A stretch of 64,000 bases of DNA from Bacteroidota bacterium (GCA_033763735.1 JANRJY010000025.1:9917-73916); one strand, 5' to 3'. Counted from the first letter of the stretch, positions 32,305 to 53,490 are shown. Notes: generated by a model from the sequence alone, not told the origin. Translations and numbers: made by a program.

Positions 32305-33666
32305 ATGGGGATATTTGCATTTATATTATTTTTTATTTTAGGATTTGCGTTGGTTAACCGATTTGCCAATACACTTTCAATTATCGAAAAAATTGGTTTT
32401 TCTTTTCCTATTGGATTGGGGTTGGTTACTGTACTTATGTTTTTGTTGGATATCAGCAAAGTTGGAATTACAATAGCTCCTATATTATTAGGAGTAATAA
32501 TTTTAATAATATTATTTGGGTATCCACTTTTTAAAACTACACGGCTATATTGGATTGATTCTTTCAAATTACTTAACATTAAATACTCCTTTGGATGGTT
32601 TTTCTTAATTGGATTTATAATTTACTTACTTTATGGTATAACTTCTAAAGGACTTTATTGGCCTCCTGCAGAACACGATTCGTTGACAGGATACGACTTA
32701 CAAGCCAAAATGATAGCAAATGAAGGTACATTTGTAACAAGTCAATTTGATTATCCTTACAACAGCACCTATGACTTAGCAAGGTTTATTTACCCTCCTT
32801 TATCATCTGCTGGATTTGCATTAGCTTATATATTTGGATTTGACAATAGTAAAATAACAGTTATCTTATTGTTTTACAGCCTTTTAATCTCATTTTATGG
32901 ATTAATCCGTAAGTCAATTAATGATACTTGGGCGCTGTTATTCACTTTTTTTATGATGATAACACCTGAAATGTTTTCGCATGCCTCTCTTTCACTAACA
33001 AATCTCCCAAACACAGTATATACTTCTATTTCAGTTATTTGCTTGTATTATTGGCTTATTTCCAATGATAAGTCCTATTTTATTATTTCATTAAGTTGTA
33101 TGTTTTTGAGTAATTGGAGTCGAAGTGATAGCATAGTTTTTGTAATAGCTACCCTTGCAGTTATTCTATTTTTTAACTTAAAAAATATTCAATGGAAGAA
33201 TATAATAATTTATGGAGTAATTTCAATAATTCCATTTATTGTATGGGGATTATTTATAAAGATGAATATTGGTGCAAATTCTTCTGACTTTTTTGTCAAA
33301 ACGTTGTTTTGGGATAGCCAAAAAATGTCTGAAATATTGTCCAAATGTATGGTAATTGTGCTTGGAAATGGCGTATATTATGGAATCACCTTTTTTGTAT
33401 TTGTGGCAATTGCCGGATTGAATGTGGTTGATATATTTCAAACAAGAAATCCGGTAGCAATGTTTATATTTATTGCTTGGATGGGTTATACACTTTTATA
33501 TTATCAAATAGATTATAATTTTGCAGGTAGTATTGATGCATATATTAATGCTTCGTATAAAAGAGGGATGTTTAACTTTGTACCATTATGCTGGTTCTTT
33601 ATTGGAACAAGTCCATTTTCAATAAAATGGCTGGGAAAAGCAGATATGTTTTTTAACAAAAACTAA
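32305..33666 (+). CDS. Polytopic membrane protein, possible GT-C / ArnT-PMT_2-like glycosyltransferase
   Basis: 453 aa with at least 10 hydrophobic helices by eye. The loop segment PPAEHDSLTGYDLQAKMIANEG resembles the D-E/S...A..M..G motif of PMT_2-type enzymes. Weak assignment. Confidence 0.4.
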   Translation: MGIFAFILFFILGFALVNRFANTLSIIEKIGFSFPIGLGLVTVLMFLLDISKVGITIAPILLGVIILIILFGYPLFKTTRLYWIDSFKLLNIKYSFGWFFLIGFIIYLLYGITSKGLYWPPAEHDSLTGYDLQAKMIANEGTFVTSQFDYPYNSTYDLARFIYPPLSSAGFALAYIFGFDNSKITVILLFYSLLISFYGLIRKSINDTWALLFTFFMMITPEMFSHASLSLTNLPNTVYTSISVICLYYWLISNDKSYFIISLSCMFLSNWSRSDSIVFVIATLAVILFFNLKNIQWKNIIIYGVISIIPFIVWGLFIKMNIGANSSDFFVKTLFWDSQKMSEILSKCMVIVLGNGVYYGITFFVFVAIAGLNVVDIFQTRNPVAMFIFIAWMGYTLLYYQIDYNFAGSIDAYINASYKRGMFNFVPLCWFFIGTSPFSIKWLGKADMFFNKN

Positions 33667-34290: not shown

Positions 34291-36315
34291 ATGAAAAATT
34301 CTAAAAATAAATCTTTAGAAAATAATACATCTTCCAATCTTGCCTCTTTACAACAAAGAGCCAATAATGATTTTTTTAGTTTTAATTTCGGCAATAAAGA
34401 AAAGTGGTTTATAGGAATTTCACTTTTACTATACTTTTCATTCATATTATTGAAATGGAATGGTTCATCAATTTCAGTATGGAATCAAATATTTGGAACC
34501 ATTCAAAACACTAAAAAAAGTGTAATTTTTGGAGAAGCAGTACCCATCAGACAAGATGAATGGATGGTTTATACACCCATGCTTTTAAACCAATACGAAA
34601 ATGGAATGAATGTTATAAATGAAAGTTTAGGAGAAGGTAATATAACATTACCTATTAATGTTCCAGTGAAACATTTTTCTATTTTTTTCAAACCCAACAT
34701 GATATTTTTTTTATTTCTTAATAAAGAACAAGGGTATTCTGCTTTTTGGAATTTCAAAATCTTTGGGATTATTATTTCTGTTTTTTTGTTTTTGAGTTGT
34801 CTAACTAAAAACAATTTTTTACTTTCCGTTTTTGGGGCATTTTGGGTGTATTTGTCTCCTGTTACACAATGGTGGTTTTCTACAAATATTCCGGAAATGA
34901 CTACATCATTTTGCCTTACATTCTTTTTTTTAATTCAGTTTATTAATTCTACGAAAAAATTACACTCTATTCTTTATTCGTTTGGTCTTGTATATTCCAT
35001 GTTTTTCTTTGCAATGCAATTATATCCGCCATATATGTTTCCCTTTGCCCATTTTGGAGTTTTTTTATTGATTGCAATTATTTTTGAAAAGAGAGAGTTA
35101 ATCAAATTGGTTTTTTTGGATAAGATCAAAATGATTAGCTTCATTTTTTTGACTATTATTTCAGGACTATTGTTTGCACTTTTTTTACAAGAAATGAAAA
35201 GTATTGTTGACACAATGTTACAAACGGAATATCCTGGAAAACGAGATTTTACTGGGGTAACCATTATATCTTATTTAGATGCATTTACAGCATACTTTGA
35301 TTTCTTTCATACTAAAACTAAATTTCCAATGTATCCCGGTAGTGGAAGTCAATCAGAAATAGCAGAGGCTTTATGGATATTTCCATTTGCTTTTTTTGGT
35401 GTCGTTTATAATGCCATTAGATATAAGACACACGATTATGTTTTATACGTTTTCCTGATTTATTTCATCTTTATTGTGCTATGGGTTTTTGTTGGTCTAC
35501 CTCCTTTTTTGTACAAAATTTTACTTTTAGATATGACTACCCCTGATCGAGGAAGTCAAATAATAGGAATTTGTGGAATCTTTATAACGATTATTTATAT
35601 ATCTAGAACGAGTAAAAATGCAAATATGAATACCTTTGCATCAATTATTTTTTCTATATTAATTTTTGTCTTTGTTGCATTTATTGGATATAAATCAAAT
35701 GAAGTTTTAAATAATTTTTTTACAAGTACTCAAATTTTAGTTGCTGCATTCTTAATCTCGTTATCAGGCTTTTGCATGTTTAATTTTAATAATATGTTTT
35801 TAAGATTTGGTTTTGTAGGTATTATTTTATTTATATCTTTCAAAAATATTGCCATAAATCCGATACAAGTTGGACTTTCTCCTATTACCAAAAATCCATT
35901 ATATGATAATGTAAAATCAATTTACCGTTTAAATCCTGATAAAGGTTGGATTGTTATGGGTAGTTCTATGGTAGCAAATTTCATAAGATGCACAGGAGCT
36001 AAAGTAATTAACGGTGTCAATTATATTCCTAATTACAAATATACGTCTGTATTGGACCCTGAAAATAAAAACAAAAAAGTTTACAACAGATATGCCCACA
36101 TTACATGTTATCCGTTTATTAATAATACAGATACCATTGCATTTACGCTTAATAATGCTGATGCATACTCAATGGGTATCGACCCTTCTTCTGAAAAACT
36201 CAAAAAAATAGGAGTGAAATATGTTGTTTTTACTTACGATCCCCAACCTATTGAGGTTAGAAATCTAGAACAAATCTCAAAAGATGGCATATCAATTTAT
36301 CAATTTAAAGACTAA
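34291..36315 (+). CDS. Large polytopic membrane protein with C-terminal soluble domain; uncharacterised GT-C-like family (paralog of 41730..43736)
   Basis: 674 aa. TM1 is followed by the loop KSVIFGEAVPIRQDEWMVYTP, many further TM helices, and a ~130-aa C-terminal domain (TGAKVINGVNY...NRYAHITCYPFINNTD...FTYDPQPIEVR). Confidence 0.5.
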   Translation: MKNSKNKSLENNTSSNLASLQQRANNDFFSFNFGNKEKWFIGISLLLYFSFILLKWNGSSISVWNQIFGTIQNTKKSVIFGEAVPIRQDEWMVYTPMLLNQYENGMNVINESLGEGNITLPINVPVKHFSIFFKPNMIFFLFLNKEQGYSAFWNFKIFGIIISVFLFLSCLTKNNFLLSVFGAFWVYLSPVTQWWFSTNIPEMTTSFCLTFFFLIQFINSTKKLHSILYSFGLVYSMFFFAMQLYPPYMFPFAHFGVFLLIAIIFEKRELIKLVFLDKIKMISFIFLTIISGLLFALFLQEMKSIVDTMLQTEYPGKRDFTGVTIISYLDAFTAYFDFFHTKTKFPMYPGSGSQSEIAEALWIFPFAFFGVVYNAIRYKTHDYVLYVFLIYFIFIVLWVFVGLPPFLYKILLLDMTTPDRGSQIIGICGIFITIIYISRTSKNANMNTFASIIFSILIFVFVAFIGYKSNEVLNNFFTSTQILVAAFLISLSGFCMFNFNNMFLRFGFVGIILFISFKNIAINPIQVGLSPITKNPLYDNVKSIYRLNPDKGWIVMGSSMVANFIRCTGAKVINGVNYIPNYKYTSVLDPENKNKKVYNRYAHITCYPFINNTDTIAFTLNNADAYSMGIDPSSEKLKKIGVKYVVFTYDPQPIEVRNLEQISKDGISIYQFKD

Positions 36316-36317
36316 AA

Positions 36318-37559
36318 ATGTATAAAGAAGTTAATGTTTGCCGAATTTGCGGTAACACAAAATTTGAACCTATAGTTTCTCTTGGTGTCCAATCACTTAC
36401 CGGTGTTTTTCCAAAATCTATTGACGATAAAGTTGATAAAGGTCCCCTTGATTTAGTACAATGTAAAGGAGATAATTCATGTGGATTAGTACAATTAAAA
36501 CATTCTTTTAGTCATGAAGAAATGTATGGAATGAATTATGGGTATAGATCAGGGCTAAACAAATCTATGGTTATGCATTTGTCCTCAATAACAAAGAAAG
36601 TTTCTCAAATTATTGAATTAAAAGACAATGATGTAATAATTGATATTGGAAGCAATGATTCAACCTTATTGCAATCATATGCCCAGGTAACAAAGGCAAA
36701 ACTTAATTTAATAGGAATTGACCCAACCGGAATCAAGTTTAAAAAGTATTACCCTGAAAATATTAATTTGATTGCTGACTTTTTTTCTGCAAATATCTTT
36801 AAAAAGGCTTATCCAAACAAAAAAGCTAAAGTTGTTTCTTCAATTGCAATGTTTTACGATTTAGAAGACCCTACTTCATTTATGGAGGACATTTATAATG
36901 TGTTATCTGACGATGGAATTTGGATATTTGAACAAAGCTATCTTTTAACCATGTTGGAAGTCAATGCATATGACACAATTTGTCATGAACATATCGAATA
37001 TTATGCAATAAGACAAATTGAATGGATGGCTAAAAAAGTTGGTTTCAAGCTTGTTGATATTATCTTAAATGATATCAATGGAGGAAGTTTTCAAATAATT
37101 TGCACAAAGGCTATAAATAATAATATTAAATCAAGCAGTAATTTGGACAAATTAATAATCAATGAGAATGACAACCTTCATAAACTTTTGATTAATTATA
37201 AAATACAGGTTGAAAATCATCGTAATGAATTAATAAAATTATTAACCAAACTTAAAACTGAAGGCAAAAAAGTATTTGGTTATGGGGCCTCCACAAAGGG
37301 AAATGTTATATTACAATATTGCGGCATTGATAAAAATTTGATGCCTTACATCGCAGAAGTAAATGAAGATAAGTTTGGATCTTTTACACCAGGCACTCTA
37401 ATTCCAATTATCTCTGAAAATGAAGCAAGAGCATTAAAACCGGATTATTTCCTGGTTTTACCTTGGCATTTTAGAGCAGGCATTTTAGAAAGAGAAAAAG
37501 AGTTTTTAAAAAATGGAGGTAAATTCATTTTTCCATTGCCAAAAATTGAAATAGTTTGA
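36318..37559 (+). CDS. Zinc-ribbon SAM-dependent methyltransferase of the NDP-hexose C-methyltransferase (TylCIII-like) architecture
   Basis: N-terminal CRIC...C....C Cys cluster, a class I SAM fold (VIIDIGSNDSTLL), and a C-terminal domain (VFGYGASTKGNVILQYCG...YFLVLPWHF) typical of Methyltransf_13/14-type enzymes. Confidence 0.6.
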   Translation: MYKEVNVCRICGNTKFEPIVSLGVQSLTGVFPKSIDDKVDKGPLDLVQCKGDNSCGLVQLKHSFSHEEMYGMNYGYRSGLNKSMVMHLSSITKKVSQIIELKDNDVIIDIGSNDSTLLQSYAQVTKAKLNLIGIDPTGIKFKKYYPENINLIADFFSANIFKKAYPNKKAKVVSSIAMFYDLEDPTSFMEDIYNVLSDDGIWIFEQSYLLTMLEVNAYDTICHEHIEYYAIRQIEWMAKKVGFKLVDIILNDINGGSFQIICTKAINNNIKSSSNLDKLIINENDNLHKLLINYKIQVENHRNELIKLLTKLKTEGKKVFGYGASTKGNVILQYCGIDKNLMPYIAEVNEDKFGSFTPGTLIPIISENEARALKPDYFLVLPWHFRAGILEREKEFLKNGGKFIFPLPKIEIV

Positions 37560-38509
37560 TGAGAAAAACTGCTTTAATTGTTGGATTTACTGGACAAGAT
37601 GGTCAAATTCTATGGAAGTATCTTGAAAATTTAGGTTACAATTTAATAGGTATTTCAACAAACAAAATAATTTCGAACTATTATAGTCTAAATCACTCTA
37701 ATTTTAATATAAGTTCTGAATCAGATATTAAATCATTGATTTCAACTATATATATTGATGAAATATACTTTCTTGCAGCTGTGCACCAATCTTCTACTGA
37801 CGTACTTGATAACGAATTAGATTATTTTAGGAAAAGTAATGAAGTAAATTTTGTATCTCCAAGTACAATTCTTTCTTGTATTTTTAACTATTCAAAAAAG
37901 ACCAAATTTTTTTATGCTTCATCTTCTCACATTTTTAGAGGCTCAGTACAAACGCCACAAAATGAAGAAACAAAACCAGTTCCGTTGTGTATATACGGAA
38001 TTACAAAAACTTCTGGTACTTATATTACTCAGTACTTTGCAAATAAAGGTGTATTTGCTTCTGTGGGAATCTTATATAATCACGAGTCAATTTTTAGAGA
38101 TCGAAAATTCGTTTCACAAAAAATTATAAAAGGAGCAGTTGCAATCAAAAAAGGACTTTTAGATTCATTAACTTTGGGCTCATTGGATGCTAAAATTGAT
38201 TGGGGTTATGCACCTGATTTTGTAAAGGCTTATCATATGATCTTAAATATTTCAAAGCCAGATACTTTTATTATAAGTACATATAAGCTGACATCTATTG
38301 CTGATTTTGTAGAAGAAACCTTTAATCAGCTCGGACTGGACTGGAGAAAATATATTAAAATTGACAGTGAAATCATAAAGAAAGGCTTACAAAACAATCT
38401 TTTAGGAGATCATTCTAAGCTAAAAAATATGACTGGATGGTATCCTGAAACCACTTTTTCTGAAATGATTAAAATATTATTAGATTATGAACTTAGCAAC
38501 AATGGATAA
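37556..38509 (+). CDS. Gmd-family extended SDR (GDP-sugar 4,6-dehydratase/reductase-like)
   Basis: ALIVGFTGQDGQILWKYL (GxTGQDG), YGITK (YxxxK) and LYNHESIFRDRKFVSQKI. The usual T-S-E catalytic segment reads SSSHIF. The start overlaps the upstream stop (ATGA). Confidence 0.6.
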   Translation: MMRKTALIVGFTGQDGQILWKYLENLGYNLIGISTNKIISNYYSLNHSNFNISSESDIKSLISTIYIDEIYFLAAVHQSSTDVLDNELDYFRKSNEVNFVSPSTILSCIFNYSKKTKFFYASSSHIFRGSVQTPQNEETKPVPLCIYGITKTSGTYITQYFANKGVFASVGILYNHESIFRDRKFVSQKIIKGAVAIKKGLLDSLTLGSLDAKIDWGYAPDFVKAYHMILNISKPDTFIISTYKLTSIADFVEETFNQLGLDWRKYIKIDSEIIKKGLQNNLLGDHSKLKNMTGWYPETTFSEMIKILLDYELSNNG

Positions 38510-39242
38510 TTTATCAGAAATTCTTGTAGCAATTCCAACATATAATGAAGCTGAAAATGTCAAAAAATTATTTGAACAAATTTTTAAACTCAATTTCAAG
38601 AAAGATATTTTGTTTTTGGATGACAACTCTCCGGATGGAACAGGTGAAATAATTAAAATGATCCAATCAGAAAATAAAAATGTTTTTGCTATACATAGAA
38701 TAGGTAAGCTTGGAATTGGTAGTGCTCATCAAGAAATCATTAATTTTGCATATCAAAAAGGATATAAAATTCTTGTTACAATGGATTGTGATTTTACACA
38801 TTCCCCATCATCAATAATTGACTTCATTAATAACTCCGACAATTATGATGTAGTAGTAGGTTCAAGATATATGAAAAAAGATAGTCTCAAGGACTGGAAT
38901 CTAATCCGAAAATTTTTAACCAATTTTGGCCATATACTAACAAAGTATGTTTTAAATTTGAAAGAAGATGCAACAGGAGCCTTTCGATTATACAAATTAA
39001 ATAATATTCCAAAGCAACTTTTCTCATTAGTTGAGTCAAAAAGCTATTCTTTTTTCTTTGAAAGTCTGTTTATTATTTCCTTCAATAAATTTAAAATAAA
39101 AGAAATACCTATAGATTTGCCTTCACGTACTTATGGAAATTCAAAAATGGAAATAAAAGATGTTATTAAGAGTTTAAAATATTTGTATTTATTATTAATG
39201 AGAAAATATTTTAACAGGCAGTCCTTAATAATCAAGAATTAA
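38502..39242 (+). CDS. GT2 polyprenol-phosphate glycosyltransferase (DPM1/ArnC-like)
   Basis: ILVAIPTYNEAENV, FLDDNSPDGTGEII, VTMDCDFTH and VVVGSRYM match the dolichyl/undecaprenyl-phosphate sugar synthase layout. An alternative start lies at 38487. Confidence 0.65.
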   Translation: MDNLSEILVAIPTYNEAENVKKLFEQIFKLNFKKDILFLDDNSPDGTGEIIKMIQSENKNVFAIHRIGKLGIGSAHQEIINFAYQKGYKILVTMDCDFTHSPSSIIDFINNSDNYDVVVGSRYMKKDSLKDWNLIRKFLTNFGHILTKYVLNLKEDATGAFRLYKLNNIPKQLFSLVESKSYSFFFESLFIISFNKFKIKEIPIDLPSRTYGNSKMEIKDVIKSLKYLYLLLMRKYFNRQSLIIKN

Positions 39243-39243
39243 T

Positions 39244-39927
39244 ATGGCACTAACTTACGAACAAATAGAACAAGATTGGGAGATTTACTGGGGAGCTCAA
39301 GGTAAACCCACCAGTAAAACATATGATTTAATCGCAGAGTTTTACAGAAGAAATATTATTATTAAAATTCTGAATCATTTCTTAAAAAAACATTATAAAG
39401 AGCATGAAAATGTTTTGCATGCCGGATGCGGAAGTGGACAAGTTGATTTAGATGCTAATATTTACTTGAATATTACAGCTCTTGACATATCATCAAAAGC
39501 GCTTGAAATTTACAAAAAAGTTAATCCTTCTAATAAAAAAACAGTAAAGGGAACAATTTTTGATTTGCCGTTTGAAGACAACTCTTTTGATGGAATTTAT
39601 AACCTTGGAGTTATGGAACACTTTACTGAAGAAGAAATTCAACTGATCTTGAAAGAATTCAAAAGAGTAGTCAAAAAAGAAGGTAAGATTATTTTATTCT
39701 GGCCTCCTACCCGTGGAATCACTGTTAATTTCTTAGACTCAGTACATTTTATTTGTAATAAGATATTTCAAATGAATGTTAAACTCCATCCCGATGAGAT
39801 TACAAGAATCAGATCCAAAAAACATGCTCAAGAAATTATCGAAAAATCTGGAATGAATTTGATTGACTATTATTTTGGCATTAAAGATATATTCACTCAA
39901 GCAGTTATAGTTGCTCAAAAAAAATAG
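39244..39927 (+). CDS. Class I SAM-dependent methyltransferase
   Basis: VLHAGCGSGQVDL (motif I), DGIYNLGVMEHF and GKIILFWP. Confidence 0.7.
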   Translation: MALTYEQIEQDWEIYWGAQGKPTSKTYDLIAEFYRRNIIIKILNHFLKKHYKEHENVLHAGCGSGQVDLDANIYLNITALDISSKALEIYKKVNPSNKKTVKGTIFDLPFEDNSFDGIYNLGVMEHFTEEEIQLILKEFKRVVKKEGKIILFWPPTRGITVNFLDSVHFICNKIFQMNVKLHPDEITRIRSKKHAQEIIEKSGMNLIDYYFGIKDIFTQAVIVAQKK

Positions 39928-39935
39928 GCTTTGTT

Positions 39936-41717
39936 ATGAATTTGGACAAAAAAAATAAACTAAGCAATATACTTCCTTCTGTATTTGTTGCAATAGTAAT
40001 AATTAGTTTCAGCTTTAGTTTGTTTAAGAATATTTCTTACCCATTGCTTTGGAATGATGAAACTGATGCAGCTATGTGGTCAACCAGAATAATGGAGTTT
40101 GGCTATCCTAAAGTTCATGATGGTAAAAACAAAGTATTTTTAGTATATGCCCCAAATATGAAAATGGGCTATAAAAAGGAACATGATGCATATATTTATA
40201 TAACTTGGGGTGGGTATTATTTTGCGGTAATTGGAGAATTTCTTTCAAAATTTACAAACGACATTTATGTTAAAACGGCTTTAATGCGCATTCCTTTCGC
40301 TTTGGCCGGTTTTATTGGTATTATTTTGATGGTGTTATCGATCAAAGACTTTTTCCTCCAAAATCGAACATTACTTTGGTTAGCAATCATATTTGGTATT
40401 TTTGAAATTTTATCCATATCACTTGTATTACACATGCGAGAAGTACGATATTTTTCTTTAGTAATCTTTTTTACAGGAATATTGTTTTTTATATTTTTTA
40501 GGTTTCAGCTTCTTAATAAAATGTCATTAATCGCTTATAGTATTGCAATGACTATCTTGTTATTCTTAACATTCAATACTAATTTTATAGTTTTTGCAAT
40601 TTTTGTTGGAACAATTGGATTTTATCAATTCATTTTATTTTTATTTCAATTTAAAAATGGTAAATCATTTGACAAAAAATCAGGTAATACTGAATCATGG
40701 AAAGTCAGAATCATAAATCTATTTATTCAATATATACCTTTGTTTATTTCTATATTGTTGGCAATTCCACTGATTTCTTATTTTGAAATAATTGAATCAT
40801 CTGCTGAATTGTCAAAATTCAAAAATTTCAATTTAAATCTTTATTTTTCAAATCTTTCAAGTGTGTTAAAATACTTTACTAAACTTGAATATCTATATCT
40901 GGCAATCGTTGTCAAAATTATTCTTTTATTAACTTTTTTAACCGTAAAAAAATCTATATCCGAAAAACCAACCAAAAACAAAGAAAATGAAATTGTAATT
41001 ACTAAAATTCCATTTACAATCAATTATAAAATAATGGTTTCAAATTTTATGTTATTATTTATTTTAATTTATGCGCTTATTAATTGTCGATTACCATATT
41101 TTTATGTGCGCCATTTTATTGTATTACAACCTGTAATGTCACTTATGATGGTATTGGATATTTTTATTGTTTTTCAAATTTTTAATGAAAATGTTAAAAA
41201 AACCAGTATAACTTTTTCAAAAGCACTAATTTCTTTTGTCATTATTATTGCGTTTGCAGTTAACACAGGTAACAAATTAAAATATATTAATTTGCACTTA
41301 TATGAACTAACTCATCAATATAAAGGAGTGCTTGATTATATTATTCCCTATATTAAGGAAAACTATAAAAACCCTGAGAAACTAACAATTGCTACGAATT
41401 ATGAAGAATTAGCTTATATGTTTTACTTAAAATCTAAAACTACAATAGGTTTTATTAAAAATAATTTAGAAGAAGACAAAAAATATCAACCTGATATTAT
41501 TATTTACAGAAGAGGTTGGGGTTGGCAAAATGACCAAAATATTTTTAATGATTTCTTTCAAAAAGCCAAATACAAACCCATACAATTTCCGGTAGTGGAT
41601 TTCTATGTGAATAATATGCCAGAAATAAATGAAAAAGATCCGGTTACACATCAGTTTAAGACATTAACAACGAATGACCCTAATCAGATGATGACAATAT
41701 ATGTTAAAGAAGATTAA
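39936..41717 (+). CDS. Polytopic GT-C glycosyltransferase, ArnT/PMT_2 (GT39/83)-like
   Basis: 593 aa. TM1 is followed by YPLLWNDETDAAMWSTRIMEFGYP (DE...A..S..M..G as in ArnT-type enzymes), many TM helices, and a ~130-aa C-terminal soluble region. Confidence 0.55.
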   Translation: MNLDKKNKLSNILPSVFVAIVIISFSFSLFKNISYPLLWNDETDAAMWSTRIMEFGYPKVHDGKNKVFLVYAPNMKMGYKKEHDAYIYITWGGYYFAVIGEFLSKFTNDIYVKTALMRIPFALAGFIGIILMVLSIKDFFLQNRTLLWLAIIFGIFEILSISLVLHMREVRYFSLVIFFTGILFFIFFRFQLLNKMSLIAYSIAMTILLFLTFNTNFIVFAIFVGTIGFYQFILFLFQFKNGKSFDKKSGNTESWKVRIINLFIQYIPLFISILLAIPLISYFEIIESSAELSKFKNFNLNLYFSNLSSVLKYFTKLEYLYLAIVVKIILLLTFLTVKKSISEKPTKNKENEIVITKIPFTINYKIMVSNFMLLFILIYALINCRLPYFYVRHFIVLQPVMSLMMVLDIFIVFQIFNENVKKTSITFSKALISFVIIIAFAVNTGNKLKYINLHLYELTHQYKGVLDYIIPYIKENYKNPEKLTIATNYEELAYMFYLKSKTTIGFIKNNLEEDKKYQPDIIIYRRGWGWQNDQNIFNDFFQKAKYKPIQFPVVDFYVNNMPEINEKDPVTHQFKTLTTNDPNQMMTIYVKED

Positions 41718-41729
41718 TTATTAAAACAA

Positions 41730-43736
41730 ATGTCTTCGATTAAAAAAAAAGATACTAAAATTATTTCAATAGAGAATGCGAAACCTGAATTGAAGGGTAA
41801 TCTTATAATATTTGACCGTAAAGTCAAAATATTCATTTCTGTTTGCTTCATCGCATTTTTTATATGTGTTTTATTTAAATTACATGGATCTTCAATAGGG
41901 ATTTGGGATTCAATAACAGGAAATACAAGTCTTAAAAATAAAAGCGTAATCTTAGGAACACCAAAAAGTATTCGCTCAGATGAATGGCTTGTTCAGACTC
42001 CTTTTTTAATTTCTCAATTTAACAGAAAATTTTCAAATGAAAACGAATCATGGGGCGCATATAATTCACCTGTGGCAATGGGTGGCCCCGCAAATGATTT
42101 AACATCACATATTAAATTAAATTACCTTGGGTTTTATTTATTTAACATTGAGTACGGTTATTCCTTTTATTGGAATTTTAAAATTTATTTTCTCTTAATA
42201 TCCTCATTTCTGCTTTTTATGTTGCTTACTAAAAACAACTTTTGGTTGAGCATTTTTGGCTCTTTTTGGCTTTATTTGTCGAGTGGAGTTCAATGGTGGT
42301 TTTCAACAAGTCTGCCGGAAATGCTTATTTCTTTATGTATCATTACGACTTCTTTATTATATTTATCCTATGCAAAAAATCTTTTTCACATTATAATATC
42401 CTCTGTTTCAATACTCTTGTTTTCTTGGGTTCTTGTTTTTCATATTTATCCTCCTTTTCAATTATTAACTTTTTATACTATCGTAGTTTTATTCTTGGTT
42501 TTACTTTTAATGTATTGGGATAAAATTCTTTTTCGCAAAAATATTTATCTAAAAATATGTATATGTCTCGTTATTTTATCAATTGATATTTTATTGATTT
42601 ACTTTTTTTATATCGATACCAAACAAACTATTGAAATTGTTCAACAAACTATTTACCCAGGTCAAAGATTAGTTGATCATGCAAACTTTACCTGGTCAAG
42701 ATTTTTTGTCAATTTTTTTGATGTATTCTTAAATGAAACAAAGTTTCCTAACTTAAATGTTTGGTACAATATTTGTGAAAGTAGTGGATTTTTAATGCTT
42801 TTTCCTTTTATTATTCCTGCAATAGTATTTCAACAAATCAGAAAAAAAGCTATTGATTACACTTATACTATCATTTTATCATTAATTTTTTTGCTTACGT
42901 TTAGTTGCTTTGTTGAATTACCTGATTTTTTATATAAAATAACTTTATTAAGCATGATTTCATCCGTAAGATGCCATCTTTTTGTTGGATTTTTAAGTTT
43001 AGTTCTAACGATTTACTTTTTAAATGACATTTCTAAGAATTCAAAATTTACAAATCTGGAAAGGGTAATAACCATATCAATTGCTGCTTTAATTTATCTC
43101 TCAATTTATTTAAATATTAAAGAAATTTTGGATCAGTATATCACTGGAAATCAATTTATTATTGCTTTAATATTAATTTTAATTCTGACTAGTCTGACTT
43201 TGTTTAATTTTAAATTCAGAGAATTAGTTTTTGTTGGCATAATAATCTTATTCCTTTCTTCTAATTTATTGGTTAATCCAATAACCAAAGGTCTTGGCCC
43301 CATATTAAATAATCCGCTCTATAAACAAGTGAAAAATTTAAATAATCAAAATTCGAAATGGGTTGTGTTCGGACAAATGACTTTTTCAAATTTTATCAAA
43401 ACTACCGGTGCAAAAGTGATAAGTGGCGTAAATTATACTCCTGAGAAAGAAAAGTTAGATATTCTAGATTCAAAAAATCAATTTCAGCACATACACAATA
43501 GATATGCTCATATTTCATTTTATCCTTTTATTAACGGAACTGATTCTGTAGCTTTTGTTTACGATGGGAATAAATTTACAGATTCTTATACTATAGCCAT
43601 GGACCCTTGTTCTCCAAAACTAAAAGCATTAGGGGTACAATATTATTTTTTTACTTATCAACCACAACCAGCAGAAGTAAGGTGTCTTGATTTGGTAGAC
43701 CAAAATCCATTTCCAATATACAAACTAAAAGACTAA
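41730..43736 (+). CDS. Large polytopic membrane protein with C-terminal soluble domain; paralog of 34291..36315
   Basis: 668 aa. Shares with 34291: GSSIxxW, KSVIxGxPxxIRxDEWxVxTP, LTKNNFxLSxFGxFWxYLSxxxQWWFST, YPP, TxYPGxR, LPxFLYKIxLL, VNPIxxGLxPIxxNPLY, TGAKVIxGVNY, NRYAHIxxYPFIN and FTYxPQPxEVR. Confidence 0.5.
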   Translation: MSSIKKKDTKIISIENAKPELKGNLIIFDRKVKIFISVCFIAFFICVLFKLHGSSIGIWDSITGNTSLKNKSVILGTPKSIRSDEWLVQTPFLISQFNRKFSNENESWGAYNSPVAMGGPANDLTSHIKLNYLGFYLFNIEYGYSFYWNFKIYFLLISSFLLFMLLTKNNFWLSIFGSFWLYLSSGVQWWFSTSLPEMLISLCIITTSLLYLSYAKNLFHIIISSVSILLFSWVLVFHIYPPFQLLTFYTIVVLFLVLLLMYWDKILFRKNIYLKICICLVILSIDILLIYFFYIDTKQTIEIVQQTIYPGQRLVDHANFTWSRFFVNFFDVFLNETKFPNLNVWYNICESSGFLMLFPFIIPAIVFQQIRKKAIDYTYTIILSLIFLLTFSCFVELPDFLYKITLLSMISSVRCHLFVGFLSLVLTIYFLNDISKNSKFTNLERVITISIAALIYLSIYLNIKEILDQYITGNQFIIALILILILTSLTLFNFKFRELVFVGIIILFLSSNLLVNPITKGLGPILNNPLYKQVKNLNNQNSKWVVFGQMTFSNFIKTTGAKVISGVNYTPEKEKLDILDSKNQFQHIHNRYAHISFYPFINGTDSVAFVYDGNKFTDSYTIAMDPCSPKLKALGVQYYFFTYQPQPAEVRCLDLVDQNPFPIYKLKD

Positions 43737-43741: not shown

Positions 43742-44674
43742 GTGAATATTGCTGTAATTATACCTTGTTATAAAGTAGAAAATCATATTGAAAATGTTAT
43801 TAATACATTACCCAGTATAATAACTTATATTATTGTAGTTAATGATTGTTCTCCTGACAATACTAAATTGATTCTTAATAAAATAGGTACAACAAATAAT
43901 AAAGTTATTTACTTAGAACATACGCAGAATCAAGGTGTAGGGGGGGCAATGAAAACAGGGTTTGTAAAAGCCTTAGAACTTAATGCTGATATTATTATTA
44001 AACTTGACGGGGATGGTCAAATGAACCCAAAATATATTCCAGAATTTATTAAACCAATTATCGAAGGGAAAGCAGATTTTACCAAAGGGAATAGGTTCAG
44101 AAATTACCGAACCATTCAAAGAATGCCTATTATAAGACGCATTGGAAATTTAGGATTGAGCTTTTTAACAAAAGCAGCCTCAGGTTATTGGAATATTTTT
44201 GATCCTACGAACGGTTATTTCGCTATGAATATAACCACACTTAAGCTAATAAATCTTGAAACGCTTCATAACCGTTATTTTTTTGAAAGTTCGTTGTTAA
44301 TTGAAATGTATCATAGTGATACAGTTATTCAAGATATTCCTATCGATGCTCAGTATGGAGAGGAGATTTCAAATTTGTCTGTAACAAAAACATTATTTGA
44401 ATTCCCACCAAAATTATTCTTAGCTTTCATTAAAAGAATTTTATTCAAATATTTTCTATATGATTTTAATATAGCTTCAATTTATATAATGTTAGGTTTT
44501 CCAATATTTACATTGGGTGCTTGGTATGGTTTAATCAATTATATTAAATACACTCATTTACATATTGTAGCTCCGACCGGTACTGTAGTTATTCCAACTT
44601 TGCTCATTACTTTGGGATTTCAGTTAATACTTTCAGCAGTTAATTTTGATGTATCCAATTATCCAAAAAAATAA
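43742..44674 (+). CDS. GT2 bactoprenol-phosphate glycosyltransferase (GtrB/ArnC-like) with C-terminal TM helices
   Basis: GTG start. IAVIIPCYKVENHI, VVNDCSPDNT, KLDGDGQMNP, and two C-terminal hydrophobic helices (IYIMLGFPIFTLGAWYGLI, VVIPTLLITLGFQLILSAV). Confidence 0.7.
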   Translation: MNIAVIIPCYKVENHIENVINTLPSIITYIIVVNDCSPDNTKLILNKIGTTNNKVIYLEHTQNQGVGGAMKTGFVKALELNADIIIKLDGDGQMNPKYIPEFIKPIIEGKADFTKGNRFRNYRTIQRMPIIRRIGNLGLSFLTKAASGYWNIFDPTNGYFAMNITTLKLINLETLHNRYFFESSLLIEMYHSDTVIQDIPIDAQYGEEISNLSVTKTLFEFPPKLFLAFIKRILFKYFLYDFNIASIYIMLGFPIFTLGAWYGLINYIKYTHLHIVAPTGTVVIPTLLITLGFQLILSAVNFDVSNYPKK

Positions 44675-44711
44675 TAAAGTAATTATTTAAAACTTTACCA
44701 AATTGAATAAA

Positions 44712-45422
44712 ATGGAAATATCTGATTTACCGGTATTATTATTAGCAGGGGGTAAAGGAACCAGAATACAACATTTACTCAATGATTTACCAAAGCCGAT
44801 GTATCCTGTATTCAACAGACCATTTTTGGACTATCAAATTGATTATTTGTTAAAATTTGGGTTTCAAAATTTTTATATTTCTACTGGTTATCAAGGTCAT
44901 GTAATTGCAAACTATTACCGAAATAATAAAAATATCAATATAATTCACGAGACTCAGCCACTTGGCACTGGAGGAGGCATTTTATTTGCGATGTCAAAAA
45001 TCAAAGAGCCTAATGTAATTGTTCTAAATGGTGACACACTTTATTTATTAGATTTTTTTTCTTTTGTCAATCATGCATTAAACAACCCATTACACACATG
45101 TATAGCTTTGAAAACTGTTGTTGACTCCACTAGATACGGTACAGTAATATTAGATAACTTTAATAAAATAACCCATTTTATTGAAAAAGGGAAAAGCAAC
45201 ACCGGACCTGGATTAATTAATGCGGGAATATATTATTTGAACAAGCAACAAATCTTAAATTATAGTTTTCCTGAAATATGCAGTATTGAAGAAACCATTT
45301 TTCCCAAAATAATAGAATCAGGTATTTATGGATTTAAGGCTCATAATGAATTTATTGATATTGGCACCCCAGAAACATTACATGAAATAGAAAATTTTGT
45401 CAAAGTAAACAACCTAATATAG
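44712..45422 (+). CDS. hddC: Sugar-1-phosphate nucleotidylyltransferase, D-glycero-alpha-D-manno-heptose-1-phosphate guanylyltransferase-like
   Basis: LLAGGKGTRIQHLLNDLPKPM (GxGTR), LGTGGGI and LNGDT, with a size of about 236 aa. The track ORF uses a TTG at 44703. Specificity is inferred from the neighbouring hddA/gmhA. Confidence 0.6.
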   Translation: MEISDLPVLLLAGGKGTRIQHLLNDLPKPMYPVFNRPFLDYQIDYLLKFGFQNFYISTGYQGHVIANYYRNNKNINIIHETQPLGTGGGILFAMSKIKEPNVIVLNGDTLYLLDFFSFVNHALNNPLHTCIALKTVVDSTRYGTVILDNFNKITHFIEKGKSNTGPGLINAGIYYLNKQQILNYSFPEICSIEETIFPKIIESGIYGFKAHNEFIDIGTPETLHEIENFVKVNNLI

Positions 45423-45431
45423 TAATTTTAA

Positions 45432-46259
45432 ATGGCTGCATTGACGGTAATTATGACTTTTTTTAATGAATCTCCTGATTTATTGAAACGCTCGGTATAT
45501 TCGATTTTAAACCAAACTTTCAATGATTTCGAGTTTATTATTATAGCTGGAAACCCTGAAAATTCTGCAGGCATTAATTTTATACTTAATGCTCAAAAAA
45601 CAGACTCAAGAATTATCTTTAAAGTATATGAAACTAAACTATTGATGACAGTATGTCTAAATATTGCAATAAAAATGGCTAAAACTCCTTTAATAGCCAT
45701 TCAAGAAGCAGATGATGAGTCTTTGCCTCTAAGATTTGAAAAGCAAATTGAAGTTTTTAATACCAATTCAAATATTGACGTAGTAGGAACCGCTATTAGA
45801 TATGTAGACAATTTTACAGGAAAAGAAATAGTAACCAGATATTACCCCCAATATAGTTTTAAAGAATTTAACAGATTTGCAGCTATTGCACACCCAACAG
45901 TAATGGCAAAAAAATATTTATATGAAAAATACGGATTTTATAGCGAAGAAGAGAAACATAGGAACAGCCCTGATTTTGAATTATGGGTAAGGTGGAAGCA
46001 ACAAGGTGTGATTTTTTATAATATTCAGGAAGTGCTATTTCTATATTACCAAAGTCAAGATAATGGAAGAAATAAGAATGTAAAAAAAACACTTAAATCT
46101 GTCATAAATATTAAGGAACACCATTTAAGTAAATTAAAATTTACATTTAATGATTATCTATTTTTGTTTGCAGAAAAAACATTATTACTTTTTCCTGCCT
46201 CGTTTATTTCAAAATTGTTTTATGTTTGGGGTCAAACTCAAAAAAAATCAAATAATTGA
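45432..46259 (+). CDS. Family 2 glycosyltransferase
   Basis: LTVIMTFFNESPDLLKRSVYSILNQTFNDFEFIII and the acidic EADDES motif. Confidence 0.7.
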   Translation: MAALTVIMTFFNESPDLLKRSVYSILNQTFNDFEFIIIAGNPENSAGINFILNAQKTDSRIIFKVYETKLLMTVCLNIAIKMAKTPLIAIQEADDESLPLRFEKQIEVFNTNSNIDVVGTAIRYVDNFTGKEIVTRYYPQYSFKEFNRFAAIAHPTVMAKKYLYEKYGFYSEEEKHRNSPDFELWVRWKQQGVIFYNIQEVLFLYYQSQDNGRNKNVKKTLKSVINIKEHHLSKLKFTFNDYLFLFAEKTLLLFPASFISKLFYVWGQTQKKSNN

Positions 46260-46262
46260 TTA

Positions 46263-47249
46263 ATGATTATTTCAAAAACACCACTTAGAATAAGCTTTTT
46301 TGGCGGAGGCACTGATTACCCCGATTATTTTAAACAATATGGGGGCGCAGTTTTATCAACTTCAATTAATAAATACGTATATATCTCAGTAAATCAAATA
46401 TCTGCAATTTCTGAATATAAATACAAAAATACATATTCAAAAGTTGAACAAGTACAAACTATAGACGAAATCATTCATCCTTCTGTTAGGGAATGTTTGC
46501 GATACATGAAAATTAATGATGGTCTTGAAGTACATACAATCAGTGATTTACCTGCAAAAACAGGGTTAGGATCTTCTTCTTCGTTCACTGTGGGACTGCT
46601 AAATGCTTTGCATGAGTATCAAAACACAAAAAGAACTGCTTTGGAACTGGCTAAGGAAGCAATATATGTAGAGCAAAAATTAATAGGTGAAAAAGTAGGT
46701 GTTCAAGATCAAAGTGCTGCTGCTGTTGGGGGGCTTAATTATTTTGAGTTTAATACAGATGAATCAATCTCCTATAAGCCGGTACCCATATCAAAAGAAA
46801 GAATTGTTGCTTTTAAAAATCATATGTTACTTTTTTATACAGGTGTGCAAAGATTTGCAGAGGATGTATTAAAAGAACAAATTGAAAAAACAAAAACAGG
46901 GGAAGTAAAGCAAGATCTTGCTTCCATTCGAAAAATGGTAGATAAAGGATATGAAATTCTCACTTCAAATAGTTCTCTTTTGGAGTTCGGAAAACTTTTG
47001 GATGAAGCCTGGAAACTTAAAAAGAACTTATCATCTTCAATTTCAAACAATTACCTGGATGAAATGTATAATACTGCAATTAATGCCGGAGCCTCTGGAG
47101 GAAAACTATTAGGAGCTGGCGGAGGTGGATTTTTTCTCTTTTTTGCAGATCCATCTAAACACATTGAAATTCGAAAAGCATTAAATCAATATCAAGAAAT
47201 CCAATTCGATTTTGATAATGATGGAAGTAAAATCATATTCGTACACTAA
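46263..47249 (+). CDS. hddA: GHMP sugar kinase, D-glycero-alpha-D-manno-heptose-7-phosphate kinase-like
   Basis: TPLRISFFGGGTDYPDY, PAKTGLGSSSSFTVGL (GHMP motif II) and GGKLLGAGGGGFFLFF (motif III). Confidence 0.7.
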   Translation: MIISKTPLRISFFGGGTDYPDYFKQYGGAVLSTSINKYVYISVNQISAISEYKYKNTYSKVEQVQTIDEIIHPSVRECLRYMKINDGLEVHTISDLPAKTGLGSSSSFTVGLLNALHEYQNTKRTALELAKEAIYVEQKLIGEKVGVQDQSAAAVGGLNYFEFNTDESISYKPVPISKERIVAFKNHMLLFYTGVQRFAEDVLKEQIEKTKTGEVKQDLASIRKMVDKGYEILTSNSSLLEFGKLLDEAWKLKKNLSSSISNNYLDEMYNTAINAGASGGKLLGAGGGGFFLFFADPSKHIEIRKALNQYQEIQFDFDNDGSKIIFVH

Positions 47250-47261
47250 ATTAACTTAAGA

Positions 47262-48182: not shown

Positions 48183-48555
48183 ATTTATTTCATATTTGGT
48201 ACTTTTTTCTCTTTCCGCAGCAGGTTCAACTACATTAATGGGAGACAAAGACATGTTAGCCGGAAATTTGTTATCTAAAGAAGGAATTTTAACTTTGATC
48301 ATGAATTGGAGATTTTATTTAGCAATTTTTTTAGCTATTTTGAGCAGATTCACCTTTGTTCTTATGAATAGTGAACTTTTAAAAATAGAATATACGCGAA
48401 ATAACGCGACAAATATTACTACAATTGTTTCGATTGCTTCAATAATTGTGGTCTTTTTTTCAAACTATATATTTTTGAATGAATGGCTTACATCAAAGCA
48501 ATTTGTTGGTTCAGTTATTATCTTATTTGGAGTTTGGCTAGTTTTAACAAGATAA
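48172..48555 (+). CDS. Small four-helix DMT/EamA-half membrane protein, ArnE/ArnF- or GtrA-type lipid-linked sugar flippase candidate
   Basis: About 127 aa with four hydrophobic helices and the EamA-like C-terminal helix FVGSVIILFGVWLVL. The ATG at 48172 overlaps the upstream gene by 11 nt. The track ORF uses a TTG at 48154. Confidence 0.5.
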   Translation: MIIKFISYLVLFSLSAAGSTTLMGDKDMLAGNLLSKEGILTLIMNWRFYLAIFLAILSRFTFVLMNSELLKIEYTRNNATNITTIVSIASIIVVFFSNYIFLNEWLTSKQFVGSVIILFGVWLVLTR

Positions 48556-48565
48556 ATACAAAATT

Positions 48566-49774: not shown

Positions 49775-49776
49775 AA

Positions 49777-50703: not shown

Positions 50704-50723
50704 ACCCCAAATTTTCTTATGAG

Positions 50724-51380: not shown

Positions 51381-53490
<2,110 letters not shown>

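Follow-up and report, generated by a model that had tools for sequence, protein, structure and literature searches.

An operon for sugar biosynthesis from an uncultured member of the Bacteroidota lies in the window (the whole 64,000-nucleotide stretch of DNA analysed), and two of its ATG-initiated open reading frames on the + strand encode the proteins termed here A (674 residues, 34291..36315) and B (668 residues, 41730..43736). A is 100% identical to the NCBI entry [quoted passage not shown]. A reading of the DNA made from the sequence alone (the sequence-only reading) had taken the two for collinear paralogs, which is borne out at these positions by a single collinear BLASTP alignment with 239 identities over 650 residues (37%; 54% positives; E 1e-124), a similarity far above chance. 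The two are most likely distinct in their donor, acceptor or linkage. Nearly all of the sequence blocks described as shared are present in both translations (GSSIxxW, IRxDEWxVxTP, GYSxxWNFKI, LTKNNFxLSxFGxFWxYLSxxxQWWFSTxxPEM, YPP, TxYPGxR, TKFP, LPxFLYKIxLL, NPIxxGLxPIxxNPLYxxVK, TGAKVIxGVNY, NRYAHIxxYPFIN, FTYxPQPxEVRxL and the Y-x-(F/L)-K-D end), with two small transcription slips: the proline of "GxPxxIR" occurs only in B, A reading G-E-A-V-P-I-R, and the first residue of "VNPI" is isoleucine in A. The acidic pair proposed to be catalytic, with its partner arginine, lies in R87-Q-D89-E90-W91 of A (34549..34563, +) and in its counterpart R82-S-D84-E85-W86 of B (41973..41987, +).

Between A and a 251-residue family 2 glycosyltransferase (GT2) lie, at 36318..38509 (+), genes for a 413-residue sugar C-methyltransferase (Pfam Methyltransf_13/14) and a 317-residue GDP-mannose-4,6-dehydratase-like enzyme (Pfam GDP_Man_Dehyd; TIGR01472 gmd, E 1e-52), which are assigned by these matches to sugar-nucleotide tailoring. 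In the remaining operon (44703..52322, +) are genes for an HddC-like guanylyltransferase, an EpsE-like GT2, an HddA-like heptose kinase, methyltransferases, a second C-methyltransferase, an Fcl-like reductase, a GmhA-like SIS isomerase and an epimerase, a combination that looks like a GDP-heptose/6-deoxy-sugar pathway. The polytopic 593-residue protein encoded between A and B (39936..41717, +) has a W-N-D-E sequence right after TM1 (40050-40061, +) that is invariant among homologs, and a 145-residue C-terminal outer domain. It matches no Pfam or NCBIfam family even at E ≤ 10, and none of its 555 homologs carries a Pfam domain. Its AF2 model (pLDDT 88, pTM 0.91) returns only GT-C enzymes among the top 20 Foldseek matches, with E-values as low as 1.2e-5, by which it is a third predicted GT-C-fold protein, from a family that lacks a Pfam model. 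A polytopic protein of 453 residues (32305..33666, +) is a possible, weakly indicated fourth GT-C-like enzyme, matching NF047440 (LA_3751/LA_3752 putative glycosyltransferase) at E 1.4e-5 and PMT_2 at E 1e-3 (19.7 bits, under the 26.1 cut-off).

Family membership and predicted fold of A and B

Both proteins match the Pfam families DUF7657 and DUF7654 in N-to-C order, A with 319.9 and 112.1 bits and B with 342.0 and 94.2 bits, all above the gathering cut-offs of 26 bits (DUF7657) and 27 bits (DUF7654); the DUF7657 E-values are 1e-95 and 1e-102. In A, DUF7657 covers the membrane core (residues 38–438) and DUF7654 the C-terminal outer domain (residues 531–672), and B has the same architecture. 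The family is large, with about 3,900 representative clusters at 50% identity (B was recovered as P0013 at E 1e-248 in the representative search), and is already catalogued, its function being predicted rather than measured. The suggestion of a novel, unnamed family is not supported in that form and survives only in part: the two Pfam entries exist and a 2024 preprint had already put forward the Enterococcus faecalis member EpaP as a possible GT-C-type transferase (bioRxiv 10.1101/2024.06.26.600781), while no experimentally tested DUF7657/DUF7654 member, enzymatic or genetic, and no unrelated function, was found in the literature searched. A numbered CAZy family requires one characterised member.

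The link of A and B to GT-C enzymes is at the level of predicted fold only. Neither protein matches the Pfam models for PMT/PMT_2/ArnT, YfhO, DUF2142 or STT3 at E ≤ 1, PDB sequence and profile searches with the family gave no matches, and hhalign comparisons with ArnT, PMT_2+TPR and DUF2142 profiles gave probabilities of ≤3%; as these profiles were shallow, a link may still emerge from deeper ones. The AF2 model of A (pLDDT 77, pTM 0.83) has 13 long TM helices and an alpha/beta C-terminal outer domain, with outer loop 1 (residues 54–144, ~90 residues) following TM1 and R87-Q-D89-E90-W91 opening a short helix within it; confidence is low in the predicted catalytic loops (residues 75–81 and 319–356). 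In a Foldseek comparison of the model with the PDB, ranks 1–12 are all GT-C enzymes (STT3, PglB, ArnT, EmbC and AftD), with probabilities of 0.89–1.00, modest E-values (1.6e-3 to 0.2) and TM-scores of 0.22–0.48, all below 0.5. Reviews recognise the GT-C enzymes of multi-component systems by the same structural homologs (PMC8035078; PMC9574508).

The density of lysine and arginine is 0.176 per residue in the predicted inner loops versus 0.067 in the short outer loops, and by the positive-inside rule the R-x-D-E-W loop is predicted to lie outside the cytoplasm, as the sequence-only reading had supposed. R87 and D89 are each found in 158/160 diverse relatives, and E90 in 154 (with aspartate in 4 more); among the 52 positions conserved to at least 85%, 38 fall in the three predicted outer regions. 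The invariant arginines of A are R87, R318 and R420, and an N-R-Y sequence is invariant in the DUF7654 domain. Because structure prediction and fold search, the invariance of R-x-D-E, positive-inside topology and gene neighbourhood (see below) agree, the assignment of A and B to the GT-C superfamily, with a putatively catalytic acidic pair in outer loop 1 and a tie to polyprenyl-phosphate GT2 genes, is supported at the level of models that superpose on solved GT-C enzymes.

The weak Foldseek E-values, the TM-scores below 0.5 and the missing sequence-level link to any glycosyltransferase family would also fit A and B being not glycosyltransferases at all, but a transporter, a Wzy-like polymerase, an O-antigen ligase or a structural protein with a superficial likeness to GT-C. 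This is very improbable, given that the next matches after the GT-C enzymes are MFS transporters with probabilities of ≤0.1 and TM-scores of only about 0.1, that Wzy_C, FtsW/RodA (SEDS) and WaaL are found neither by Pfam nor among the Foldseek matches, that the invariant polar residues cluster in loops of the outer face rather than along a membrane-spanning pathway, and that neighbouring lipid-sugar synthases fit an enzyme consuming their product.

PMT (GT39), which uses a lipid-monophosphate sugar donor, has a conserved Asp-Glu pair in loop 1 as its classic motif, and general protein O-glycosylation is known in Bacteroidota. Both facts, together with the C-terminal TPR repeats of some family members (P0046) and with streptococcal GtrB and GT-C pairs that glycosylate Ser/Thr-rich protein regions (PMC12041528), favour a role for A and B as protein O- or N-glycosyltransferases of GT-C fold that act on envelope proteins instead of polysaccharide, like PMT, YfhO-type PgtC2/PgfM1 and TMTC. 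We consider this improbable: although A and B share the loop 1 pair with PMT, they match neither the PMT_2 nor the PMT Pfam model and have no MIR or other protein-binding domain, and PMT structures rank poorly for A (9e61_A at rank 46 with probability 0.33). Moreover, the operon, like most related loci, is a polysaccharide-type cluster, and EpaP lies within a rhamnopolysaccharide locus.

Lipid-linked sugar synthases and the proposed pathway

A polyprenyl-phosphate GT2 gene had been noted within a few genes of each paralog, and this holds: the gene for the 251-residue GT2 (38487..39242, +) is the third downstream of A, and that for a 310-residue GT2 (43742..44674, +) directly follows B, beginning 6 nt past its end. 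Both proteins score best against polyprenyl-phosphate glycosyltransferases, yet below the NCBIfam equivalog cut-offs. The 310-residue protein (Pfam Glycos_transf_2; best NCBIfam matches AglJ, PpgS, PgfS and ArnC) has hydrophobic segments within residues 242–305, predicted to form two C-terminal TM helices, and aligns with the N-terminal domain of Escherichia coli ArnC (24% identity, E 3e-9); it is a candidate polyprenyl-phosphate sugar synthase of the GtrB/ArnC/DPM-synthase type. The 251-residue protein, which has a Pfam GT2 match, best NCBIfam matches to PpgS, PgfS and ArnC and no TM helices, is a candidate synthase of the GacI/EpaI/PpgS type, with 23% identity over its full length (E 2e-13) to E. 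faecalis EpaI, which makes GlcNAc-P-Und (bioRxiv 10.1101/180810).

Gene neighbourhoods were compared across 51 genome loci that carry 45 full-length relatives, from Bacteroidota, Desulfobacterales (Desulfobacterota), Firmicutes including Lachnospiraceae and Erysipelotrichales, Endomicrobia and the archaeal genus Methanobrevibacter. A small polyprenyl-phosphate-type GT2 immediately adjoins the family member in 20/45 loci across phyla, usually on the same strand, and one is present within 6 kb in 28/45; small membrane proteins of the GtrA (PF04138) or DUF2304 (GacJ/Rv3632) type are often alongside.

The 17/45 loci in which no such GT2 lies inside 6 kb are in keeping with another reading, in which A and B are GT-C-fold glycan ligases or oligosaccharyltransferases, taking a ready-made oligo- or polysaccharide off its undecaprenyl (di)phosphate carrier and joining it to another polymer or to protein. 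The best Foldseek matches of A are oligosaccharyltransferases (STT3 8agc and PglB 6gxc); PglB/STT3 are known, and WpsJ from Lactococcus is proposed, to act in this way, and reviews accept WpsJ-type GT-C enzymes that move oligosaccharides from C55-P carriers (PMC9574508). The only published hypothesis on a family member is also of this kind, EpaP and EpaQ being proposed to join EPA decorations to rhamnan (bioRxiv 10.1101/2024.06.26.600781), and EpaP adjoins ABC-transporter and rhamnosyltransferase genes, not EpaI/J. Nevertheless, we regard ligation as unlikely for A and B. A directly adjoining GtrB-type GT2 accompanied by GtrA or DUF2304, as seen across phyla, is a signature of monosaccharide-phosphate-lipid donors, and such a GT2 directly follows B; no initiating phosphoglycosyl transferase or Wzx was found in the annotated part of the operon; and fold rank is uninformative on donor type, ArnT reaching a TM-score of 0.48 against 0.32–0.37 for the oligosaccharyltransferases.

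We favour, as the probable reading, that A and B act outside the cytoplasm as GT-C-fold transferases in a multi-component glycan-modification system of the GtrA/GtrB/GtrC type. From the paralogy, family membership, predicted fold and topology, residue conservation and gene neighbourhood we infer a donor, an acceptor, a flippase and roles for individual residues as follows. Cytoplasmic enzymes of the same operon (GmhA-, HddA- and HddC-like heptose-type enzymes, a 4,6-dehydratase, reductases/epimerases, C-methyltransferases and further methyltransferases) would supply at least one unusual GDP-activated sugar, probably a modified heptose or deoxyhexose, which the 251- and 310-residue GT2s would load onto undecaprenyl phosphate. 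Flipping of the loaded lipid to the periplasmic side would fall to a small transporter. A candidate for this step is a four-helix, EamA-like membrane protein of 133 residues (48154..48555, +), identified by hydropathy and a Pfam EamA match of 30.4 bits, barely over the 28.2 cut-off; it shares similarity with neither ArnF nor EpaK. Among the operon ORFs scanned there is no flippase gene of the GtrA, Wzx or MATE type, and the window lacks a GtrA-family flippase. A and B would then each pass the sugar on to an acceptor glycan at the cell surface (O-antigen, capsule or glycoprotein), with catalysis through the invariant Asp-Glu pair of outer loop 1, the donor phosphate probably held by R87, R318 and R420, and acceptor binding probably aided by the DUF7654 domain with its N-R-Y. 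Three or four GT-C candidates share the operon with only two polyprenyl-phosphate GT2 genes, which weighs against the proposal in leaving no simple pairing of synthase and transferase.

A wider synthesis, which we offer as rather doubtful, would make DUF7657/DUF7654 a distinct, unnumbered glycosyltransferase family of Bacteria and Archaea, in which the C-terminal domain completes the active site and envelope polymers receive either pre-assembled glycan chains or unusual methylated sugars of the 6-deoxy-heptose type. The operon, with its three or four unrelated GT-C-fold enzymes (including the Pfam-less 593-residue family), might then be a periplasmic assembly line for a multi-sugar side branch, using lipid-monophosphate donors throughout.

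Comparison with known systems

PglB/STT3/AglB (GT66), the top Foldseek matches of A (E 1.6e-3 to 1e-1), resemble it in their 13 TM helices, in the acidic residues of loop 1, in a catalytic outer loop that is flexible, and in an alpha/beta domain on the outer side at the C-terminus. However, A and B have neither the WWDYG motif nor sequence similarity to these enzymes, which use diphosphate-linked oligosaccharide donors and peptide acceptors. The best TM-score for A (0.41–0.48) is with ArnT (GT83, undecaprenyl-phosphate-L-Ara4N:lipid A transferase; PDB 5EZM/5F15), which likewise has 13 TM helices and a periplasmic C-terminal domain, and whose donor is a lipid-monophosphate sugar made by the GT2 ArnC and flipped by the small EamA/SMR-type ArnE/F. 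A and B differ from ArnT in lacking sequence or profile similarity to it, in their motif set and in the family of their C-terminal domain.

In the three- and four-component glycosylation systems of GtrC-type enzymes, GacL and CsdB, as proposed here, a polyprenyl-phosphate GT2, in some cases joined by a DUF2304 activator, works with a small flippase and with a polytopic GT-C enzyme acting outside, identified by fold and not by sequence. These GT-C enzymes probably belong to other, mutually dissimilar sequence families, and, unlike them, DUF7657 proteins have a dedicated, conserved 145-residue C-terminal domain.

The closest parallel within the family is EpaP, a core gene product of the E. faecalis locus for the enterococcal polysaccharide antigen (epa) with EpaI and EpaJ (DUF2304). 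EpaP has DUF7657/DUF7654, aligns with A over its full length (25% identity, E 5e-52) and keeps RxDEW, QWW, YP, TxYPGKR, NPI and NRYAHI; its glycan locus, like the window, includes a polyprenyl-phosphate GT2 (EpaI) and a small EamA protein. In contrast to A and B, EpaP has a Gram-positive host, a rhamnan acceptor, a single copy and a GT2 that is not directly adjacent, whereas the window, from a Bacteroidota MAG, has two paralogs and further GT-C genes within an operon of the heptose/deoxy-sugar kind. The polymer ligation published for EpaP as a proposal differs from the monosaccharide transfer that we propose for A and B.

Two paralogous members of the DUF7657 family

The window encodes two collinear paralogs on the + strand, A (34291..36315, 674 aa) and B (41730..43736, 668 aa), both with ATG starts as defined by ORF calling and translation. 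BLASTP gave a single collinear 650-column alignment (37% identity, 54% positives, E 1e-124), far beyond chance, confirming the paralogous pair proposed in the sequence-only reading. All of the shared motif blocks listed there are present, with trivial slips in that the P of GxPxxIR occurs in B only and VNPI is INPI in A. Regional identity is highest in the C-terminal domain (47%) and lowest in TM8-13 and the loop at residues 302-363 (27-29%).

Pfam assigns DUF7657, the membrane core, to roughly residues 35-435 (E 3e-95 in A, 5e-102 in B) and DUF7654, the C-terminal outer domain, to the last ~145 residues (E 2e-32 in A, 8e-27 in B), all well over cut-off. The earlier description of the family as unrecognised is therefore outdated: both domains are catalogued by Pfam and one member has been called GT-C-type (10.1101/2024.06.26.600781). 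A literature search for DUF7657, DUF7654, PF24677 and PF24672 found no paper mentioning these names, an NCBIfam scan of A and B matched no model, and single-sequence and profile searches of the PDB returned no chain meaningfully similar to the family. A is identical to the NCBI entry ‘MAG: hypothetical protein SFY32_03830 [Bacteroidota bacterium]’; the G+C content of the window is 32%.

Searching 1.84 billion representative proteins with a 12-member profile identified 3,940 clusters at E≤1e-3 (2,323 at E≤1e-30), so that DUF7657 is a big family and A and B are no orphan pair. Some members bear UniRef names (‘Glycosyltransferase RgtA/B/C/D-like domain-containing’; ‘YfhO family’) that are a further hint of GT-C, the polytopic glycosyltransferase fold superfamily. 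Scanning a single genome for each species yielded 51 related loci (numbered with the prefix L) from Cytophagales, Chitinophagaceae, Desulfobacterales, Lachnospiraceae including Blautia, Erysipelotrichales (Dubosiella), Endomicrobia, Gastranaerophilales, an actinomycete MAG and, among Archaea, several Methanobrevibacter; a plasmid search for relatives gave one partial match and no other. Some members (P0040, P0047, P0065, P0082, P0101, P0084 and others) carry a 160-290-aa N-terminal extension, in which an apparent signal-anchor helix and a second helix flank a soluble domain of ~130-150 aa ahead of the core. These extensions were considered and rejected as fused GT2 or flippase domains, having no Pfam match and resembling TM - soluble domain - TM inserts; they would put an additional domain on the outer side of the membrane, possibly for carbohydrate binding. 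Member P0046 has TPR repeats at its C-terminus.

Predicted fold, topology and conserved residues

In the AlphaFold2 model of A, built on a 12-sequence alignment (pLDDT 77, pTM 0.83), an unstructured N-terminus leads into TM1 (residues 35-53), followed by a 90-residue loop with short helices (54-144) and twelve more TM-length helices, with a second long loop (302-363) modelled at low confidence in part and an alpha/beta domain running from residue 525 to the C-terminus. Comparison with the PDB using Foldseek placed GT-C glycosyltransferases at all of ranks 1-12 (probability 0.89-1.00), comprising yeast and mammalian STT3, PglB, ArnT (top TM-score, 0.48), EmbC and AftD; from rank 13 onward the matches are MFS and other transporters (probability ≤0.1, TM-score about 0.1). 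The absolute scores of the GT-C matches are modest (E 1.6e-3 to 0.2, TM-scores <0.5), and the gap between GT-C enzymes and transporters is sharp. In reviews, the same structural match list serves to identify the GT-C enzymes that take part in multi-component glycosylation systems (PMC8035078; PMC9574508). That A and B have a function other than glycosyl transfer appears very improbable.

The relationship is seen at the level of fold. Neither A nor B matched the Pfam models PMT, PMT_2, YfhO, STT3, DUF2142 or Wzy_C at E≤1, and hhalign of the DUF7657 profile against E. coli ArnT, a 21-sequence PMT_2+TPR profile, a 9-sequence DUF2142 profile, and the 593-aa family and 453-aa ORF encoded alongside A and B gave probabilities of ≤3% throughout. 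The GT-C link is thus invisible at sequence level with the small local profiles built, and DUF7657 constitutes its own sequence family with a fold-level GT-C assignment, as is normal for GT-C enzymes (PMC9574508).

Topology was predicted by taking the helices of the A model as TM segments and counting Lys and Arg per loop over 160 family members. The density of these residues is 0.176 per residue in predicted cytoplasmic loops versus 0.067 in short outer loops, which places the N-terminus inside, and loop 1, the 302-363 loop and the C-terminal domain outside. A MAFFT alignment of 160 diverse members (A numbering) shows that, in the R-x-D-E-W motif of outer loop 1, R87 and D89 are each conserved in 158/160 sequences, E90 in 154 (plus four with Asp) and W91 in 143. 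R420 and P524 are invariant (160/160); Q193-W194-W195, Y245-P246, T312-x-Y-P-G-x-R318, N353 (Ser in A itself) with E356, and N599 and R600 are each conserved in at least 94% of the 160, and N523 and Y601 in 89%. Of the positions conserved at ≥85%, 38/52 lie in the three predicted outer regions and the remainder mostly at outer helix ends, a pattern as expected of an active site at the extracytoplasmic face. ArnT, PglB, PMT and Emb have a catalytic Asp/Glu in loop 1; the outer-face clustering backs the idea, raised in the sequence-only reading, that the D-E pair is catalytic, and by analogy supports its assignment as a putative acid/base equivalent to the loop-1 Asp/Glu of these enzymes. The invariant arginines may bind the donor phosphate, by comparison with ArnT and PglB.

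Operon context and conserved gene partners

The genes at 31686-52322 all lie on the + strand, neighbours being separated by very short gaps or overlapping slightly; a promoter/terminator scan gave counts no better than shuffled sequence and was uninformative. At the operon head is a polytopic 453-aa protein (32305..33666), followed by a RibD_C protein (start 33671), A (34291), a sugar C-methyltransferase (36318), a GDP-mannose-4,6-dehydratase-like enzyme (37556), a 251-aa GT2 (38487), a methyltransferase (39244), a 593-aa polytopic protein (39936..41717) and B (41730). Downstream of B are a 310-aa GT2 with two C-terminal TM helices (start 43742), an HddC-like guanylyltransferase (44703), an EpsE-like GT2 (45432), an HddA-like heptose kinase (46263), a methyltransferase (47262), a 133-aa EamA-like membrane protein (48154..48555), a second C-methyltransferase (48566), a GDP-fucose-synthase-like reductase (49777), a GmhA-like SIS protein (50802) and an epimerase (51387). 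Directly past the operon, a convergent 393-aa ORF (52309..53490, - strand) has a sub-threshold match to Wzy_C, the O-antigen ligase/polymerase family (24.7 bits, cut-off 31.7), and is followed by a TolC-like OEP gene.

The 251-aa and 310-aa GT2s score highest with polyprenyl-phosphate sugar synthases (PpgS, AglJ, PgfS, ArnC), under the equivalog cut-offs, and the whole of the 251-aa protein aligns with E. faecalis EpaI (E 2e-13), which has been shown experimentally to make GlcNAc-P-undecaprenol (bioRxiv 10.1101/180810). The sugar genes (36318..38509 and 44703..52322, + strand), comprising the GmhA-like isomerase, HddA-like kinase, HddC-like guanylyltransferase, GMD-like 4,6-dehydratase, Fcl-like and other epimerase/reductases, two C-methyltransferases (Methyltransf_13/14) and two further methyltransferases, suggest a GDP-activated, C-methylated 6-deoxy-heptose or deoxyhexose product; a GmhB-type phosphatase was not found among the operon's annotated genes. 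[quoted passage not shown]

Further candidate GT-C-like proteins are encoded in the operon. The 593-aa protein, between A and B, matched no Pfam or NCBIfam model even at E≤10, and its 555 homologs (from Bacteroidota, Omnitrophota, Patescibacteria and Syntrophales) are all ‘hypothetical’, none with a Pfam domain. It has an invariant P-L-x-W-x-D-E directly behind TM1, and the 20 best PDB matches of its confident AlphaFold2 model (pLDDT 88, pTM 0.91) are GT-C enzymes only, including STT3A (lowest E, 1.2e-5), ArnT, ALG12, PglB, ALG9, AftA/B and PMT. From this model it looks like an uncatalogued GT-C-fold family; the operon would therefore have at least three GT-C-fold enzymes, mutually unrelated by sequence. 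The 453-aa protein may be a fourth GT-C-like enzyme, with matches that are all sub-threshold, to PMT_2 (19.7 bits against a cut-off of 26.1) and, at E 1.4e-5, to the putative glycosyltransferase family of Leptospira LA_3751/LA_3752. The operon arrangement is partly conserved in a Bacteroidetes MAG (L005), where the DUF7657 gene comes directly after a 593-aa homolog, a 251-aa-type GT2 and a methyltransferase and is followed, two genes downstream, by a short GT2 that has a DUF2304 partner.

ORFs were called in the 51 related loci and searched with the window proteins, and partners were counted over the 45 loci in which the family gene is full-length. A small polyprenyl-P-type GT2 is immediately adjacent to the DUF7657 gene in 20/45, usually on the same strand and in most cases 308-321 aa with two C-terminal TM helices; it is ≤2 genes away in 23/45 and within 6 kb in 28/45. 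The GT2s are accompanied by small membrane proteins, either GtrA (PF04138), in Dubosiella, Claveliimonas and Methanobrevibacter loci, or DUF2304 (GacJ/Rv3632-type activator), in Blautia and in one MAG each of Cytophagales and Bacteroidetes. The DUF7657-GT2 partnership is common to Gram-negative bacteria, Gram-positive bacteria and Archaea, and such a gene set is the signature of three-/four-component extracytoplasmic glycosylation systems (PMC11127046; PMC9574508). In a Eubacteriaceae MAG (L030, about 6001-10400), tandem DUF7657 genes (727 aa + 727 aa) precede a 321-aa two-TM GT2, and therefore tandem duplication beside a single lipid-sugar synthase recurs outside Bacteroidota. One to three tandem genes for ~612-633-aa polytopic proteins with a weak PMT_2 match and C-terminal TPR repeats adjoin the DUF7657-GT2 pair upstream on the opposite strand in Chitinophagaceae/Bacteroidetes loci (L001, L004, L006, L008, L010, L011, L046), and DUF2142 polytopic proteins are neighbours in L001, L002, L022 and L026.

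Predicted fold, topology, conserved residues and gene neighbourhood together bear out the structural and functional GT-C proposal of the sequence-only reading. A and B are probably periplasmic transferases of a multi-component system: the two small GT2s would load the operon's GDP-activated sugars, probably heptose- or 6-deoxy-derived and methylated, onto undecaprenyl phosphate, and A and B would use these lipid-linked donors on the periplasmic side to decorate a surface glycan. The main alternative, that they ligate a polymer or oligosaccharide as proposed for the E. faecalis protein EpaP, is in keeping with the OST-like top fold matches and with the 17/45 loci without a nearby GT2, and is made rather unlikely by the tight GT2/GtrA/DUF2304 linkage; transfer of sugar to protein seems less likely still.

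Implications and comparison with EpaP

The last decorations of bacterial surface glycans, which matter for antigenicity, are determined by GT-C enzymes, and these are hard to recognise because sequence conservation is absent. For the window the result is one of annotation, two ‘hypothetical proteins’ becoming predicted periplasmic glycosyltransferases, with a third GT-C-fold family without a Pfam model also flagged. More broadly, a predicted fold and topology, a conserved gene partnership and a hypothesis for the catalytic motif can now be assigned to a large DUF family with some 3,900 clusters across Bacteria and Archaea. The assignment will be expected by specialists, since new, sequence-unrelated GT-C families recur beside lipid-sugar GT2 genes of multi-component systems. 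A DUF7657 member characterised biochemically for the first time would open a new CAZy family, as happened with GT136 for a different GT-C (PMC11127046).

A tblastn search of phage records matched ‘Enterococcus/Listeria phage’ contigs from wastewater flagged UNVERIFIED_ORG, and Paraburkholderia phage IPK (39% coverage, E 9e-10). The ‘Listeria/Enterococcus phage’ matches were discounted as evidence of phage carriage, as these contigs hold bacterial chromosomal glycan loci. Two records from the ‘phages’ collection (L052 and L053; GenBank OR848519.1 and OR846623.1) contain bacterial cell-wall polysaccharide genes, one with a DUF7657 gene behind ORFs whose sizes resemble those of dTDP-rhamnose (rml) genes and the other with E. 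faecalis epaN-epaR, and look like host chromosomal contigs, not phage genomes.

These contigs led to EpaP. Family member P0161 (Enterococcus, 667 aa) is the representative of 1,567 E. faecalis sequences that carry the name ‘DUF7657 domain-containing protein’. It lies in the virulence-relevant epa locus, where the order is rmlD (epaH), EpaI (a 241-aa GT2), EpaJ (DUF2304), a small EamA protein, the ABC transporter genes EpaL/M, EpaN/O (two large GT2 proteins), the DUF7657 protein itself, a protein of 433 aa without a Pfam match and EpaR (Bac_transf). By its position in the locus, the E. faecalis DUF7657 protein is EpaP. EpaP and EpaQ have been proposed to ligate EPA decorations onto the rhamnan backbone, on the basis of bioinformatics and an epaQ phenotype, the role of EpaP being a prediction (10.1101/2024.06.26.600781). 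EpaP aligns end to end with A (25% identity, E 5e-52), with every motif kept.
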